From assembly GCA_903832205.1 (NCBI GenBank), contig CAILAH010000038.1, positions 4,456 through 68,455 on the forward strand: a stretch of DNA of 64,000 nucleotides. Reading direction: 5' to 3'. A program made the translations under genes and the position numbers. Origin of the DNA: an uncultured Candidatus Micrarchaeota archaeon. GTDB lineage: Archaea > Micrarchaeota > Micrarchaeia > CAILAH01. Below the pieces are notes generated by a model. It ran no database searches. It saw nothing but the letters and a program-made list of their open reading frames with translations, and was not told the origin of the DNA. Of the stretch, positions 20,930 to 47,410 are shown piece by piece (positions within the stretch are counted from its first letter, which is position 1; every line of letters starts with the position of its first letter).

Positions 20930-21049
20930 TGCGGCTGCCGAGATTTGAACTCGGGTCTCAGGCTTGCCTCGATTTCTTAGTGCAGGTTCCTTGCTGCGCA
21001 AAGAAAGTGCTTGGAAGGCCAGTGTCCTACCAGGCTAGACTACAGCCGC
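20930..21049 (-). tRNA. tRNA-Gly(UCC) with one intron at about 37/38 (47 nt; about 20965-21011)
   Basis: Hand-folded. Exon 1 GCGGCUGUAGUCUAGCCUGGUAGGACACUGGCCUUCCA. Exon 2 AGCCUGAGACCCGAGUUCAAAUCUCGGCAGCCGCA. One A·U mismatch in the anticodon stem. Spliced length 73 nt. Confidence 0.6.
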
Positions 21050-21102
21050 CTGTGATTTGTTTAATCTATAAAGTATTAAAAAATAGAATTAGGGGGTTAG
21101 GT

Positions 21103-21153
21103 GTAGACCACACGAGGGAAGGGGGTCTCCCCCTTCCATCAGTGAATGGGGCT
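21103..21153. repeat. Conserved 52-nt structured element (copy 1) directly abutting the tRNA-Pro 3' end
   Basis: GGGGGTTAGGTGTAGACCACACGAGG-GAAGGGGG-TCT-CCCCCTTC-CATCAGTG. Second copy at 47343-47395 with compensatory hairpin changes. Confidence 0.6.
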
Positions 21154-21285
21154 GCCCAGATTTGAACTGGGGTCTCGAAGTTTTTCATACCAACCCTCTC
21201 GAGAGGGGATTGGGTCTTATGGGAAGGGGACACTTCCCCTACCCATACCCGAACCTCGAAGCATACCAGGCTAGCCCACAGCCCC
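21147..21285 (-). tRNA. tRNA-Pro(CGG) with one 66-nt intron at 37/38 (about 21182-21247)
   Basis: Exon 1 GGGGCUGUGGGCUAGCCUGGUAUGCUUCGAGGUUCGGG. Exon 2 ACUUCGAGACCCCAGUUCAAAUCUGGGCAGCCCCA. Acceptor, T-arm and anticodon stem (with one G·U) all pair. Spliced length 73 nt. Confidence 0.65.
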
Positions 21286-22626
21286 ATATTTCTCCACGTC
21301 TTTGAAGATATCTTTACTTTTAGAAATCATAGTTTTTAAATAGTTTGACCGCCTGGCAATCTCATCATAAATCCTGCTCTCGCCCCAGCCGTTGGCGAAC
21401 GCAATCTCCTCGATGACGCGGGACTTGGCGGGCGTGCGAACGACCGTGTCCTTCTTGGGGTCATACTGGTAGATGTGCCTTATCATAATGGCGCCCTTGT
21501 TCTCAACGAGCTCGCACACCTCAAACACCTTTCTCGTCTCCTGCACCTTGCCGCCGCTGATGAATTTCAGGAATCTCCTCTGCACAATCACCAAATCAAT
21601 GGCGTTAATGTCCGAGGGCATCACGTCATTGTAGCGCAGGCGGGAGACGAGCTCCTTGGCGCTGTGCGCGTGCATGGTCGCGTAGCAGCCGCGCGCCTGT
21701 CCCGCGTTCATGCTCTCTATCATCGCGAGTATCTCCTCCTTTGAGCGCACCTCGCCGATAATCACGCGGTCAGGCCGCATGCGCAGGCTGTCCTCAATCA
21801 AATCCTTCATTTCAATCCCCAGGGGCGGATTGGTCTTCATCTTCACCTGGTGCCTGTGCGGGATAACGATCTCAGGTGTCTCCTCAAGCATTATTACGCG
21901 CTCGCTTGACGGCACAAAAGAAAATAGCGCATTGAGCGTGGTGGTTTTTCCCGCCGCGGTATTGCCGCAGATGATAACGTTCTTGTCATTCTGGAAAACC
22001 GTCCAGAGGAAAGCGAGCAATTCGTAATTATATCCCGTCTTGATGAGCTCGCGCAACGTGAGCGGTGATTTCTTGAATTTTCTTATTGTGAGCTCAAGGT
22101 CAGAAACAGGCTCAATGGTGGCGTGAAGCCGGGAGCCGTCAGGCAGCACCGCATTAAGGCGCGGATTCTGCAAAGTGATGCGCCTCCCAATCGTCCTTGA
22201 CATCTTGTTGATGACATCTATGAGCGCATTCCTGTCGGTGAACATCACGTTCGTGTCCAGCCATCCCTTCTCCCGATGAAAAACGAATATGGGATTGTCA
22301 AGGCCGATGACTGCAATCTCCTCCAGCATGTCATCCTCCAGCAAATAGGTGATGGGCCCGAATGCATAGGTCGCAAGATAGGCGGCATCAGCGAGGTAGC
22401 GCACCTGGTCATCATCGGCCTTTATGCCGTTCTTCCTGAGATTCTGCACCAAAAGCTTGTTGACAACCTGCATGGCGATGGTGCCGTTCTCAATCACTTC
22501 GTCCTTGACGGTATCGCTGAACTCCTTGCACACATCCTCTATTACCTGGAGCTCGTCAGGGCTAAGCTTCTGCACGCGCACCTTGTATTGGCCGCCGTCA
22601 AGGACTCTCCATCCCACCCAGCCCAT
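21271..22626 (-). CDS. Type IV pilus/archaellum assembly ATPase (FlaI/PilB/VirB11 superfamily)
   Basis: Walker A GNTAAGKTTTLNALFSF, Walker B/Asp box VIMLEETPEI, His box region. 451 aa. Confidence 0.75.
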   Translation of the reverse strand: MGWVGWRVLDGGQYKVRVQKLSPDELQVIEDVCKEFSDTVKDEVIENGTIAMQVVNKLLVQNLRKNGIKADDDQVRYLADAAYLATYAFGPITYLLEDDMLEEIAVIGLDNPIFVFHREKGWLDTNVMFTDRNALIDVINKMSRTIGRRITLQNPRLNAVLPDGSRLHATIEPVSDLELTIRKFKKSPLTLRELIKTGYNYELLAFLWTVFQNDKNVIICGNTAAGKTTTLNALFSFVPSSERVIMLEETPEIVIPHRHQVKMKTNPPLGIEMKDLIEDSLRMRPDRVIIGEVRSKEEILAMIESMNAGQARGCYATMHAHSAKELVSRLRYNDVMPSDINAIDLVIVQRRFLKFISGGKVQETRKVFEVCELVENKGAIMIRHIYQYDPKKDTVVRTPAKSRVIEEIAFANGWGESRIYDEIARRSNYLKTMISKSKDIFKDVEKYGAVG

Positions 22627-29301: not shown

Positions 29302-30528
29302 ATGGCAGAATCCTCAGTTACCATTGTAAATTCCGGCACTGGCCTTACACAGCGCCAGATCAGCCAGGAGATTATATCCAGACTTAAGATGATGGTTAGC
29401 GAGGCAAAGAAGCTGCTCAGGCAGAATAACATACGCGGCGCGGAGAGAAGGGTACACGATGCGCTTAACCTTGACCCGAACAATCCACAGGCCACATCGT
29501 TATTGATTAAGCTTTATTCGGGCACAGGCCGCGCATTCAAGGCCAGGAAGCTGTATGAGAGCGCAATTGAGCGCGGCATCGCATCAGGGCATTCGCCCGT
29601 CCCTATTTATGAGGCGTACCTGCGTGCGAACAAATCCACCCTCGCCCACGAGCTGCATCTGTTTTCAATTGAGAAAGGCGTGGCCCCGGCCGATGCCAAC
29701 TCTGCGCTCATTGCGGCATATTGCAAGTGCGGCCTTGTTGAGGAGGCACGTTCCATATTTGACACTGCATTGCAGGCAAAAGAGGTCAACCACTTCGCAT
29801 TCCTTTCCTTGATTCTGGGCTATAGCAGAAAGGATATGCCCGCCACTGTCATTAAGATATACGGGCTTGCAGAAGCCAATAACATGTGCAATGATGACAT
29901 AAACGATGCGATGATAATCACATTCGCAAAGGTGAACGACGCAGAATCCGCAGTCAGGCTGTTCAGCGGGTCACACAGGGGAATCATCCGCTCCCATGAG
30001 ACATTCGCCTCATTAATGCAGATGTATGCAAGATTGGGTAACGTGCCCAAGGCACGCGAGATATTTGACCTGTCAGTTGAGAAGGGATATGCGGATAACG
30101 TGACTTACGGCATCATGATTGACATCTACTGCACCGGAAAAGATACTGGGAATGTAAAAGGGCTGCAGCAAAAAGCGCTTGGCGCAAACCAGCTTGATAA
30201 GAGGGCCTACGCGTCGCTCATCCACTATTACTGCTCAATCGGCGATATTGATGAGGCGCGCAAGCTCTTTGATGACGGAGCACCGAGAAGGAAGGTTGAC
30301 AGCATGGACTGCACCACGCTTATGCACGTCTACCACGTCAAGTGGGAAATAGTAAATGCAAGGGAAGTGTATGAAATCGCAATCAAGAATGGCTTCTGCG
30401 ACTCCCGCTGCCATGACTATATGTATAATATCTATGAGATGCGGGGAGACCACAAGTCGGCAAAGGAAGTCTATGAGCAGTGGCTCAGGATTATGATAGA
30501 ACGGAGAAATTCCAGGCCCCATCCCTAG
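29302..30528 (+). CDS. PPR/TPR-like helical-repeat protein (about 10 degenerate 35-aa repeats)
   Basis: Repeated units ALIAAYCKCGLVEEARSIFDTA, TFASLMQMYARLGNVPKAREIFDL, YASLIHYYCSIGDIDEARKLFDDG and YGIMIDIYCTGKD are strikingly PPR-like. Confidence 0.6.
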   Translation: MAESSVTIVNSGTGLTQRQISQEIISRLKMMVSEAKKLLRQNNIRGAERRVHDALNLDPNNPQATSLLIKLYSGTGRAFKARKLYESAIERGIASGHSPVPIYEAYLRANKSTLAHELHLFSIEKGVAPADANSALIAAYCKCGLVEEARSIFDTALQAKEVNHFAFLSLILGYSRKDMPATVIKIYGLAEANNMCNDDINDAMIITFAKVNDAESAVRLFSGSHRGIIRSHETFASLMQMYARLGNVPKAREIFDLSVEKGYADNVTYGIMIDIYCTGKDTGNVKGLQQKALGANQLDKRAYASLIHYYCSIGDIDEARKLFDDGAPRRKVDSMDCTTLMHVYHVKWEIVNAREVYEIAIKNGFCDSRCHDYMYNIYEMRGDHKSAKEVYEQWLRIMIERRNSRPHP

Positions 30529-30808: not shown

Positions 30809-31081
30809 TGGACCCGCGCGGGATTGAACCGCGGATTTCTCGCGAAAGGGGATCTGCCGCCCCCACACATTTGCGAAAGCAAATGGTGGCGCTTTTTGGC
30901 ATGCGCCAAAACTGCGCTTCAACCCCAGGCTTGGGGCGCAGCCCCAAACCCCTGATTGAAAAGGCAGAAATCTTTCCCCAAACCCAATTTATACCCTGAG
31001 GGGGGATTGGGTCTTATGGGAAGGGGGCACTCCCCCTACCCATATGTGAGGCGAGCGTCTTAACCACTCGACTACGGGTCC
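30809..31081 (-). tRNA. tRNA-Val(CAC) with an unusually long (about 200 nt) intron at 37/38; exons 31081-31045 and 30844-30809
   Basis: Exon 1 GGACCCGUAGUCGAGUGGUUAAGACGCUCGCCUCACA. Exon 2 CGCGAGAAAUCCGCGGUUCAAUCCCGCGCGGGUCCA. Spliced length 73 nt. The intron 5' part is homologous to the tRNA-Pro intron. Confidence 0.6.
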
Positions 31082-45647: not shown

Positions 45648-47036
45648 ATGGCGGCCAAGCATTTCTCCAAGGAAGTCTGGAACAGGATGCGCACACAGAT
45701 ACTCAAGGAGGTAAGGCCGTCGCCCGAATCGCACGCGGAGGTGCGCAAGGTCGCGGATGAGCTTGTTGAGAAACTGAACAAAATTTCCCCAACTGAAATT
45801 GACGTGATGCTTACCGGCTCTTTTGCCAAGGACACCTACGTCCGCTCGGATGTTGATTTTGACATATTCATTTTATTCCCCGAGAAATTCACACTCTACG
45901 ATTTGCAGACCATGACGTTTGAGTGGGCCAAGAAGTTCCTTGAGAACTGGGAGGTCGCCTATGCGCAGCATCCCTATCTCCGTGGCTATTACAAGGGGCA
46001 TCATGTTGATGTGGTTCCCAGCTATAGGATAAGGGAGGGCGAGCCCGTCAGGATTAAGAGTGCGGTGGACAGGACGCAGCTGCACACAAAGTACGTCCTC
46101 TCGGTAATCACGGATGCGCAGAGGGATGACGTGCGCATACTCAAGAAGTTCATGAAGCGGTTGGGAATTTACGGCGCGGAGATAAGGACAGGAGGATTTT
46201 CAGGCTACCTCTGCGAATTGCTCATAATAAAGTACGGCTCGTTCTACGATCTCATAATGGCTGCGCGCAACTGGAAGTTCCCGGTTGCGGTTGATGTGAC
46301 GGGCGGCAGGAGCGAGCGGCTTCTGCACGCGCTGTTCAAGGAGGACACATTCGTGATCACGGACCCGGTTGACAAGAAGAGAAACGTCGCATCGCCTGTA
46401 AGTTCTGATTCATTGTCAAAATTCGTCGCTGCGGCGCACGTGTTTTTCCTGAACCCGAACGCGGCAATGTTTTTCACTGAGATTGAATTGCTCGGCATGA
46501 AAGAGATACGCAAGCAGGTTGCCGAGCGCGGCACATCGTTCGTGCTGTTCGAATTCCCAAAGCCCAAGAAGGCGGATGACATTTTGTGGGGCGAGATTCG
46601 CAAGACGCTTGGCTGCATTGAATGTTCTTTTGACAAGGAGGAATTCAACTGCACGCACCAGACCGCAGAGGTGCACGAGGGCAAGTGCTACATGCTTTTC
46701 GAGCTTGTGCACGATACCCTTCCCGCAGTGACGCTGCAGGCAGGGCCCTACGTGCGCATGGGGCCGCATCTTGAGAAATTCATCCAGGAGGAAATGAACA
46801 ACGTTGATTTGTTCGTGAAGGACGAGCGCATGTGGGCAGTTAGAAAGAGAAAATACAGCAGCGTGCTCCAGCTTGTTGAGGACATACGGAAGAACCCGCT
46901 CTGCCATGGTGTGAGCAAGGGCATAATGAAGGAGATTTCAACGGCGAACATCTACACGAGTGATGATTCTATTTTTGAGGACAGCCGGAAGGTGTACACG
47001 ATGCATCTCAACAGGAAATTCTTCCTGGGGCTTTGA
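45648..47036 (+). CDS. cca: CCA-adding enzyme (class I archaeal tRNA nucleotidyltransferase)
   Basis: GSFAKDTYVRSDVDFDIFILF (Pol-β nucleotidyltransferase motif) and GGFSGYLCELLII head-domain motif. 462 aa. Confidence 0.85.
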   Translation: MAAKHFSKEVWNRMRTQILKEVRPSPESHAEVRKVADELVEKLNKISPTEIDVMLTGSFAKDTYVRSDVDFDIFILFPEKFTLYDLQTMTFEWAKKFLENWEVAYAQHPYLRGYYKGHHVDVVPSYRIREGEPVRIKSAVDRTQLHTKYVLSVITDAQRDDVRILKKFMKRLGIYGAEIRTGGFSGYLCELLIIKYGSFYDLIMAARNWKFPVAVDVTGGRSERLLHALFKEDTFVITDPVDKKRNVASPVSSDSLSKFVAAAHVFFLNPNAAMFFTEIELLGMKEIRKQVAERGTSFVLFEFPKPKKADDILWGEIRKTLGCIECSFDKEEFNCTHQTAEVHEGKCYMLFELVHDTLPAVTLQAGPYVRMGPHLEKFIQEEMNNVDLFVKDERMWAVRKRKYSSVLQLVEDIRKNPLCHGVSKGIMKEISTANIYTSDDSIFEDSRKVYTMHLNRKFFLGL

Positions 47037-47065
47037 TTTGCTTTTAAATTTTCTCGTTTCAAAAA

Positions 47066-47284
47066 ATCCTCGTAGGGGCCAGTTGCTTAGTCCGGTGGAG
47101 CGCCCGACTGATATCGGTCAAAGTGACCGGTTTAGCCCATTCTTTATGGGATGGAAATCGGGAGGCCGGGAGTTCAAACAGCTTTTCTTTTGCGAAAGAA
47201 ACGTGCGTTTTCCTTGAGGGAAAACAACGCGTCATTCGCGTAAGCGAATGAACGACCTGGGAAAAGAAAAGCCTTGAAAATCTC
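47066..47284 (+). tRNA. tRNA-Ile(GAU) with two introns; exons 47066-47103, 47147-47168, 47271-47284; intron 1 at 37/38 (43 nt); intron 2 in the T-loop at 59/60 (102 nt)
   Basis: Acceptor GGGCCAG/CUGGCCC plus A. D-arm GCUU…GAGC. Anticodon stem CCCGA/UCGGG with loop CUGAUA(A). T-arm GGGAG-UUCAAA|U-CUCCC. Spliced length 74 nt. Confidence 0.65.
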
Positions 47285-47342
47285 CCCTGGCCCATTATGG
47301 GACTTTCTCGAAAGAGAAACGTGCTACACTCTTCTCGCGTGA

Positions 47343-47395
47343 GGGGGTAGGTGTAGACCACACGAGGGAGGGGGAACCTTCCCCCTCCATCAGTG
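47343..47395. repeat. Conserved 52-nt structured element (copy 2), followed by an 11-nt direct repeat of the tRNA-Ile 3' end (CCCTGGCCCAT at 47275-47285 and 47396-47406)
   Basis: GGGGGTAGGTGTAGACCACACGAGG-GAGGGGGAA-CC-TTCCCCCTC-CATCAGTG. The hairpin arms differ from copy 1 by compensatory substitutions. Confidence 0.6.
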
Positions 47396-47410
47396 CCCTG
47401 GCCCATACCC

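Follow-up and report, generated by a model that had tools for sequence, protein, structure and literature searches.

The DNA analysed here, a 64-kb stretch referred to below as the window, is an ordinary chromosomal region with genes for ribosomal proteins, TFB, Lon, a CCA-adding enzyme and GluRS. Its minus strand carries two interrupted tRNA genes, tRNA-Pro(CGG) and tRNA-Val(CAC), whose introns share their 5' portion (Table 1). The best homologues of the neighbouring GluRS and RsmB-like genes all belong to Candidatus Micrarchaeia/Micrarchaeota MAGs, and on this homology evidence the host is a DPANN Micrarchaeia archaeon outside the Thermoproteales; the Thermoproteales setting evoked in an earlier note on this DNA does not hold. 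Pfam scans of approximately 40 ORFs of the window detected no reverse transcriptase, transposase, integrase, EndA or RtcB. This group of archaea is known for its numerous disrupted tRNA genes, which make up 56% in Micrarchaeum (ARMAN-2; PMC3239211), and the epsilon2 endonuclease of ARMAN-2 has a broad specificity (PMC3239211, PMC5829648).

Table 1. Coordinates of the tRNA-Pro(CGG) and tRNA-Val(CAC) genes and of their intron features in the window.
Feature	Coordinates	Strand	Details
tRNA-Pro(CGG)	21147..21285	-	5' exon 21248-21285, intron 21182-21247 (66 nt, position 37/38), 3' exon 21147-21181
Hairpin H1 of the Pro intron (intron nt 1-30)	21218..21247	-	RNAfold -18.5 kcal/mol; starts directly after G37
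Hairpin H2 of the Pro intron	21190..21213	-	CCAAUCCCCUC UCGA GAGGG UUGG; predicted fold
Central helix H 3' strand and 3' bulge of the Pro intron	21181..21187	-	UGAA at 21184-21187, AA|A38 at 21181-21183; fold
Shared block, Pro copy	21201..21247	-	pattern search and repeat search
tRNA-Val(CAC)	30809..31081	-	5' exon 31045-31081, intervening sequence 30845-31044 (200 nt, 37/38), 3' exon 30809-30844
Hairpin H1 of the Val intron	31015..31044	-	identical to Pro H1 except A13-U18 to G13-C18
Predicted Pro-like intron in Val, 71 nt	30974..31044	-	H1, H2 (30980-31014), tail GGGGAA; fold after inner-intron removal
Predicted inner intron D3, 129 nt	30845..30973	-	multibranched, closed by GGGG/CCCU (4 bp); fold
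Shared block, Val copy	30998..31044	-	pattern search and repeat search

In-silico splicing was followed by ARAGORN analysis of the joined exons, and removal of minus 21182-21247 and of minus 30845-31044 each gave a clean 73-nt cloverleaf, of tRNA-Pro(CGG) and tRNA-Val(CAC) respectively, in agreement with the identities given in the earlier note. Neither gene was detected by ARAGORN in default mode or by Rfam; the intron-mode calls, Phe-AAA and a His-GUG with a 23-nt extra arm, were replaced by Pro-CGG and Val-CAC after splicing. Standard tRNA finders overlook three of the four tRNA genes of the window, so that the tRNA complements of DPANN genomes of this kind are probably under-called. The ORF of a T2SSE-family ATPase (21271-22626, minus strand) overlaps the 5' end of tRNA-Pro by 15 nt (21271-21285), and in relatives the two genes stand about 20-40 nt apart. 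Adjoining tRNA-Val is a gene for a PPR/TPR protein of 408 aa (window 29302-30528, plus strand; PF01535 at E=8e-24, PF13041 and PF12854). PPR proteins bind RNA and are rare in archaea. The corresponding slot in relatives holds HIT or ankyrin proteins, and a 580-aa TPR/PPR-like protein is encoded near RsmB at loci L046 and L047. At L048 (2709-2966, plus strand; GCA_975320825), tRNA-Val is inverted relative to RsmB compared with all other genomes examined.

A 43-mer taken from the start of the Pro intron on the minus strand (TATGGGTAGGGGAAGTGTCCCCTTCCCATAAGACCCAATCCCC, in RNA sense) matched 21205-21247 with no mismatch and 31002-31044 with two, against an expectation of 0.00 chance matches from 100 dinucleotide-preserving shuffles. 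Extended to 47 nt (21201-21247 and 30998-31044), the pair is 94% identical and is the longest and top-ranked direct repeat of the whole window; the shuffles and this rank rule out chance similarity. The recurrence claimed in the earlier note is thus confirmed, with block coordinates that were a few bases off, while the interval 21182-21247 that it had given is exactly the Pro intron. In both genes the alignable similarity opens precisely at intron nt 1, directly after nt 37, and the exons are unrelated and give no alignment. This rules out duplication of a paralogous tRNA gene as the source of the block, in line with the earlier note, which placed the similarity in the introns. Past approximately 45 nt the similarity breaks off sharply, the rest of the second hairpin (H2) and the tail having diverged, so that the description of the introns as near-identical applies to their first 43-47 nt at the 5' side and not to the remainder.

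The search was then widened beyond the two introns. No copy of the first hairpin (H1) module was found outside introns in the 64-kb window, and an HMM of the module run over 476 kb of sequence matched the Pro and Val introns only. A viral origin of the module was rejected, a scan of viral contigs for the hairpin having given no match. A degenerate hairpin pattern yielded 34 matches in genome contigs, essentially all of them bacterial chance matches and none in Micrarchaeia relatives, and an initial metagenome scan for exact matches gave none.

The Pro H1 consists of an outer stem (TATGGG/CCCATA), a 1x1 U/U mismatch, an inner stem (AGGGGA/UCCCCU) and an AGUG loop. The 5' arm of H2, ACCCAAUCCCC, is still common to the Pro and Val introns, and the remaining part of H2 has diverged. 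The copies differ at two sites of the intron, nt 13 (A/G) and nt 18 (T/C). These are predicted partners in H1, and the changes convert an A13-U18 pair in Pro into a G13-C18 pair in Val with pairing kept. The probability that two random substitutions strike both sides of one pair and leave it paired is 0.006. The compensatory change described in the earlier note is therefore real at the level of the predicted hairpin.

Drawn as a bulge-helix-bulge (BHB) motif, for which the rule is two 3-nt bulges around a 4-bp helix (3-4-3) with flanking helices, the Pro junction takes a relaxed form in which the h' helix comes from a local hairpin. The intron segment UGAA pairs with nt 32-35 of the anticodon loop, UUCG, giving a 4-bp H helix with one G-U pair, and the bulges at the predicted splice sites are G36 G37|U and A A|A38. 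The fold constrained to this motif has an energy of -30.5 kcal/mol, compared with -35.5 kcal/mol for the minimum free energy (MFE) structure. H1 begins at intron nt 1-2, and would thus supply the intron-side helix (h') of the 5' splice-site bulge.

Comparison with relatives places H1 under much clearer constraint than the single compensated Pro/Val pair. Eleven sequence variants were found, all of one fold: a 1x1 mismatch separates the outer stem (6-7 bp) from the inner stem (5-7 bp), which is capped by a loop of 3-5 nt. All 134 of 134 pairs are Watson-Crick, with zero G-U, and compensatory double changes occur at at least 8 pair positions. These changes were counted from individual folds rather than a covariance model, because MAFFT alignments of the hairpins were structurally poor. 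H1 is a constrained hairpin, and the structural constraint suggested in the earlier note gains most of its support from these variants. In tRNA introns H1 is invariably in sense orientation and invariably abuts nt 37, which points to RNA-level selection or to movement defined by the splice site. Endonuclease recognition, which the earlier note had offered as an example, is a reasonable reading of the position of H1, although a need of the splicing endonuclease for the hairpin is something we infer. Rfam searches of the introns returned no family match at the gathering threshold or at E<=5, and no C (RUGAUGA) or D (CUGA) box was visible in H1 or H2; H/ACA boxes were likewise not seen.

The Val intervening sequence has a more elaborate fold. 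Uncut, it forms none of the four pairs of the canonical central helix; an internal GGGG is the pairing partner of its 3' end, CCCU-UU|C38, and after this GGGG come an AAA bulge and another helix. The 129-nt segment D3 is flanked by this AAA bulge and by the UU|C38 bulge, a second BHB-like motif that includes the predicted 3' splice site. With D3 removed, the unconstrained MFE structure (-39.8 kcal/mol) consists of the anticodon stem, a 3-bp H helix (CUC/GGG), 3-nt bulges, H1 and H2. The 71-nt remainder has the same layout as the Pro intron, and the BHB-like fold appears only once the 129 nt are removed. Of the two junctions that the earlier note had proposed to draw, that of Pro can be drawn directly in relaxed form with a 4-bp H, and that of uncut Val has no base pair of the canonical H. 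From these folds the Val intron reads as a Pro-like 71-nt intron with a second, 129-nt intron stacked at the same site, and in our model the two would be removed in ordered steps by nested splicing. The Val orthologues at L043 and L045 also have the D3-type arrangement, the latter showing the strict form of the motif (AGGG/CCCT, AAA and a 10-bp inner helix). The Val introns of L046, L047 and L058 are without D3 and end in TGAG-AA, a perfect partner of CUCA. At L043 (2830-2960, minus strand), the 3' arm of the Val H1 is interrupted by a hairpin-forming insertion of about 50 nt (GTGCATTTTCCCTTCGGGAAAATGACGC...), a further case of a module nested within a module.

Syntenic loci of relatives were collected through their GluRS and RsmB homologues. 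In every relative examined (5-6), the orthologous Pro and Val genes have a 37/38 intron that opens with an H1-type hairpin, and gain at a previously uninterrupted site was not seen, the orthologous genes all being already interrupted there. The exons are 92-100% conserved, those of tRNA-Pro included, while the introns are hypervariable: across the window and the relatives the Pro intron measures 66, 116, 137, 149, 202, 225, 268 or 307 nt. Tandem arrays of 79 nt x 3.4, 44 nt x 4.6 and 62 nt x 2.5 were found. L035 and L036 encode an identical GluRS protein and have Pro introns of 149 and 307 nt; the two genes (L035 6705-6975, L036 6505-6933) differ solely in the number of 79-nt tandem units, two versus about four, with copies 99% identical. 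This difference may represent a very recent expansion or contraction, and may also reflect assembly collapse of the repeats. Similarly, L046 and L047 encode an identical RsmB protein and carry different Val introns.

Within the window the Pro and Val introns are 95% identical over the first approximately 43 nt, whereas each is 77-86% identical to its orthologues. A second such pair comes from metagenome 3300005573, where the Pro (L038) and Val (L047) introns, on separate contigs taken as one genome, are 100% identical over 39 nt in a variant other than that of the window. In both pairs the identity ends abruptly past approximately 40-47 nt. Three other populations, Ga0272448, Ga0315298 and GCA_038891275, bear different H1 variants in their Pro and Val introns, and exchange between the two genes would accordingly be episodic. 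Because all relatives carry family members in both genes, both introns are older than the event behind the 95% identity of the window copies.

A hairpin scan of metagenomes recovered the module directly after nt 37 in relatives' tRNA-Thr(CGU), tRNA-Thr(UGU) and tRNA-Glu(CUC), in addition to Pro and Val. The end of each intron follows the anticodon loop of its host: where nt 32-35 are UUCG (Pro) the tail is UGAA, CGGA or AGAA, and CUCA (Val), CUUG (Thr) and CUCU (Glu) are matched by UGAG, AAAG and AGAG respectively. After each tail come two nucleotides and then N38, forming the bulge. This covariation of tail and host loop supports the BHB model and the view that one intron family colonised several non-cognate tRNAs. 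The mobility proposed in the earlier note is borne out to the extent that the same module opens Pro, Val, two Thr and Glu introns after nt 37, and not as a recent transposition into the Val gene.

Related hairpin modules occur elsewhere in these genomes. An intergenic array lies between two divergent promoters at L063 (6177-6340, reverse-complement coordinates) and L065 (5219-5775), combining TATGGG-type modules in forward orientation with AGAAGGG-type and GAAGGGCCCCCAGCGCGGCCC modules in inverted orientation; neither a tRNA nor an Rfam family is detectable in it. Its length is approximately 180 nt in one of the samples, compared with approximately 550 nt in the other, and at L063 a TGTCGAAC direct repeat brackets it. 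In the Val intron of L048, a two-hairpin module is inverted relative to the Pro copy of L040 (38 nt, 92%), with which it shares a contig. A second family of modules, CACTGATGG-hairpin-CCTCGTGTGGTCTACACC (also written CACUGAUGG-hairpin-CCUCGUGUGGUCUACACC), was found in three contexts: in sense orientation in the 3' trailer of tRNA-Pro (21093-21146, minus strand), antisense in the 3' trailer of tRNA-Ile (47343-47395), and at the 5' end of a tRNA-Leu(UAA) intron in the relative L035 (19301-19340). The window copies are 94% identical over 32 nt, and the hairpin core differs through compensatory changes.

The tRNA-Ile(GAU) gene of the window (47076-47294, plus strand), just downstream of the gene for the CCA-adding enzyme (45648-47036), escaped ARAGORN, whether introns were allowed or not, as well as Rfam at the gathering threshold. 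Its exons (47076-47113, 47157-47178 and 47281-47294) are separated by introns of 43 nt (37/38) and 102 nt (T-loop) and join into a clean 74-nt cloverleaf. A reading of 47060-47405 as a 340-nt minus-strand RNA was rejected, the interval being this plus-strand gene with its two introns and trailer module. The last 10 nt of the tRNA, CCCTGGCCCA (47285-47294), are repeated approximately 100 nt downstream (47396-47405, plus strand) and bracket the trailer module; the repeat could be a target-site-like duplication from insertion at the 3' end, or could mark a third intron whose borders are ambiguous.

The 47-nt intron of tRNA-Gly(UCC) (window 20930-21049, minus strand) bears a further module, GCACTTTCTTT...GGAACCTGCACTAAGAAA, which recurs in relatives in both the 37/38 intron and the T-loop intron of the same gene (L038 7016-7380; L039 6942-7195). 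It forms a tandem array of 44 nt x 4.6 at L040, and is present in two copies at L036 versus one at L035. L066 (7016-7230), from a relative that is further removed (55% GluRS identity), holds the 3' half of a tRNA-Pro, which is interrupted by a T-loop intron and follows a repeat-rich leader; no matching 5' half occurs in the 21.7-kb locus, and this tRNA-Pro may be split (trans-spliced).

The gene structures, the homology of the introns, the covariation of their structure, the identity pattern and the fact that both introns are ancestral are all observed. On this footing we consider that the window copies probably became alike through recent short-tract exchange, by gene conversion or recombination, between Pro and Val introns already in residence, and not through a fresh gain. 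An identity of 95% within the genome compared with 77-86% between orthologues argues for exchange of this kind. The shared block would be the first structural module of BHB-type 37/38 introns, comprising H1 and the start of H2, in which H1 supplies the h' helix and the intron's 3' tail pairs with host nt 32-35 to give the central 4-bp helix. The module would belong to a fast-changing family of hairpin modules that is spread across this lineage and is present, in relatives, in the 37/38 introns of no fewer than five tRNA genes (Pro, Val, two Thr and Glu). Its members are amplified in tandem within introns, vary in copy number between near-identical strains and would swap between introns. The transfer that made the window copies alike, which we infer to have acted at the DNA level, would have been recent, over a short tract and within the genome's own lineage, and the single difference accumulated since may be a compensated one because the hairpin must stay paired.

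Other routes to the same arrangement were weighed. An entire intron could have been transposed recently between Pro and Val, into an intron-less or differently interrupted target, by reverse splicing and reverse transcription, for example, or by a DNA-level event, with its 3' tail later adapted to the new loop. The occurrence of the module at an identical junction, after nt 37, in five tRNA species would fit such a history, as would the H1-H2-tail layout that the first 71 nt of Val share with the entire Pro intron, and similar groups of introns in non-cognate tRNAs are described for Thermoproteales (Fujishima 2010, in the accounts given by PMC4090602 and PMC4033280). We nevertheless regard whole-intron transposition as unlikely here, since relatives already hold family members in both genes, the identity is limited to the 5' 43-47 nt with H2 and tail diverged, and approximately 40 ORFs scanned in the window include no reverse transcriptase, transposase or integrase. 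The modules could also be MITE-like or palindromic-minisatellite DNA repeats that insert, or recombine, at any site, the hairpin being kept as a DNA palindrome rather than as an RNA structure; they would then persist in tRNA introns and trailers only because such positions are harmless. Several of the observations above would suit repeats of this type, namely the L063/L065 arrays outside any tRNA, with their inverted copies and flanking TGTCGAAC repeats, the inversion of the L048 Val module relative to the L040 Pro copy, the opposite orientations of the second module family in the Pro and Ile trailers, and the variation of tandem copy number between strains; the zero G-U among 134 H1 pairs is likewise expected if both DNA strands must pair. 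However, intronic H1 is always in sense and always abuts nt 37, there are no non-intronic copies in the 64-kb window and none in viral contigs, and no transposase lies nearby, which leaves freely inserting DNA repeats a rather improbable account.

Excised archaeal introns circularise and may carry guide RNAs, an example being the C/D-box guide of euryarchaeal tRNA-Trp introns. The hairpin could on this precedent be part of a functional RNA borne by the intron, such as a protein-binding element, a guide RNA or a stabiliser of the circular intron, and its structure is indeed strongly conserved while its sequence changes. Such a role appears very improbable, because no C/D or H/ACA boxes were seen, Rfam gave no match even at E<=5, and copy number and neighbouring modules vary so wildly between strains that a dedicated function is hard to accommodate. 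A broader proposal, which we put forward tentatively and which is itself rather doubtful, is that Micrarchaeia tRNA introns host self-propagating hairpin modules of 30-80 nt, non-autonomous elements previously undescribed. Such modules would spread among 37/38 sites, amplify in tandem and stack as nested BHB introns removed in order, and would be tolerated because a broad-specificity host splicing endonuclease excises them. They might move through the splicing machinery, by reverse cleavage and ligation and then a copying step into DNA, or through a hairpin-specific DNA mechanism.

Our preferred reading, exchange between resident introns, can be set beside known systems. The groups of similar introns in non-cognate tRNAs of Thermoproteales (Fujishima 2010, Mol Biol Evol 27:2233) resemble the present case, as they are portrayed in PMC4090602 and PMC4033280, in having near-identical introns bounded by the splice sites in tRNAs with different anticodons and unrelated exons, within an intron-rich archaeal lineage. 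Against the same portrayal, the present host belongs to the DPANN Micrarchaeia, no gain at an empty site is observed, all family members seen here are at 37/38, and the window copies share the 5' module alone rather than whole introns. The introns here are, moreover, 66-307 nt long, built of tandem hairpin modules and different between near-identical strains, and copies of Micrarchaeia modules occur also in trailers and in one intergenic array, further departures from the Thermoproteales groups as those two sources present them.

Candidatus Micrarchaeum acidiphilum ARMAN-2 (Fujishima et al. 2011, PMC3239211; Hirata et al. 2012, PMC3488258) belongs to the same phylum-level group and likewise has numerous interrupted tRNA genes, relaxed BHB motifs, T-loop introns in tRNA-Pro and an unusually weak D-stem in tRNA-Pro(CGG). 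The ARMAN-2 introns taken as substrates in that work, in contrast, are short (13 and 25 nt), and no shared, modular or repeat-expanded introns are reported there. In the tRNA-Thr of Caldiarchaeum subterraneum (Sugahara et al. 2012, PMC3293823), intron content also differs within a natural population and DNA-level recombination has been invoked; the element concerned there is 1.8 kb long and includes a recombinase and a tRNA fragment, whereas here no recombinase is present and the variation consists of copy number and the exchange of 40-80-nt hairpin modules. Compared with the canonical hBHBh' intron (Marck and Grosjean 2003; Thompson and Daniels), the Pro intron has the 37/38 position, the 4-bp helix between nt 32-35 and the intron, and the two 3-nt bulges. 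It differs from the canonical form in that h' is predicted to be a hairpin formed locally beside the 5' splice site, inside a multi-helix junction, not the paired intron ends, and the Val intron would in addition need a second, internal BHB motif. Our literature search found descriptions of disrupted tRNAs in ARMAN-2, and none of long, modular, tandem-repeat, strain-variable or stacked BHB introns in DPANN.

For the gain and spread of archaeal tRNA introns, Thermoproteales provide the only large-scale case on record. The Micrarchaeia locus and its relatives provide a second, independent lineage in which the process is apparently ongoing, as evidenced by exchange of modules between non-cognate tRNAs, strain-level changes in copy number, tandem amplification and tails re-adapted to the host loops. 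The mechanism thereby becomes approachable through population metagenomics and in vitro splicing assays.
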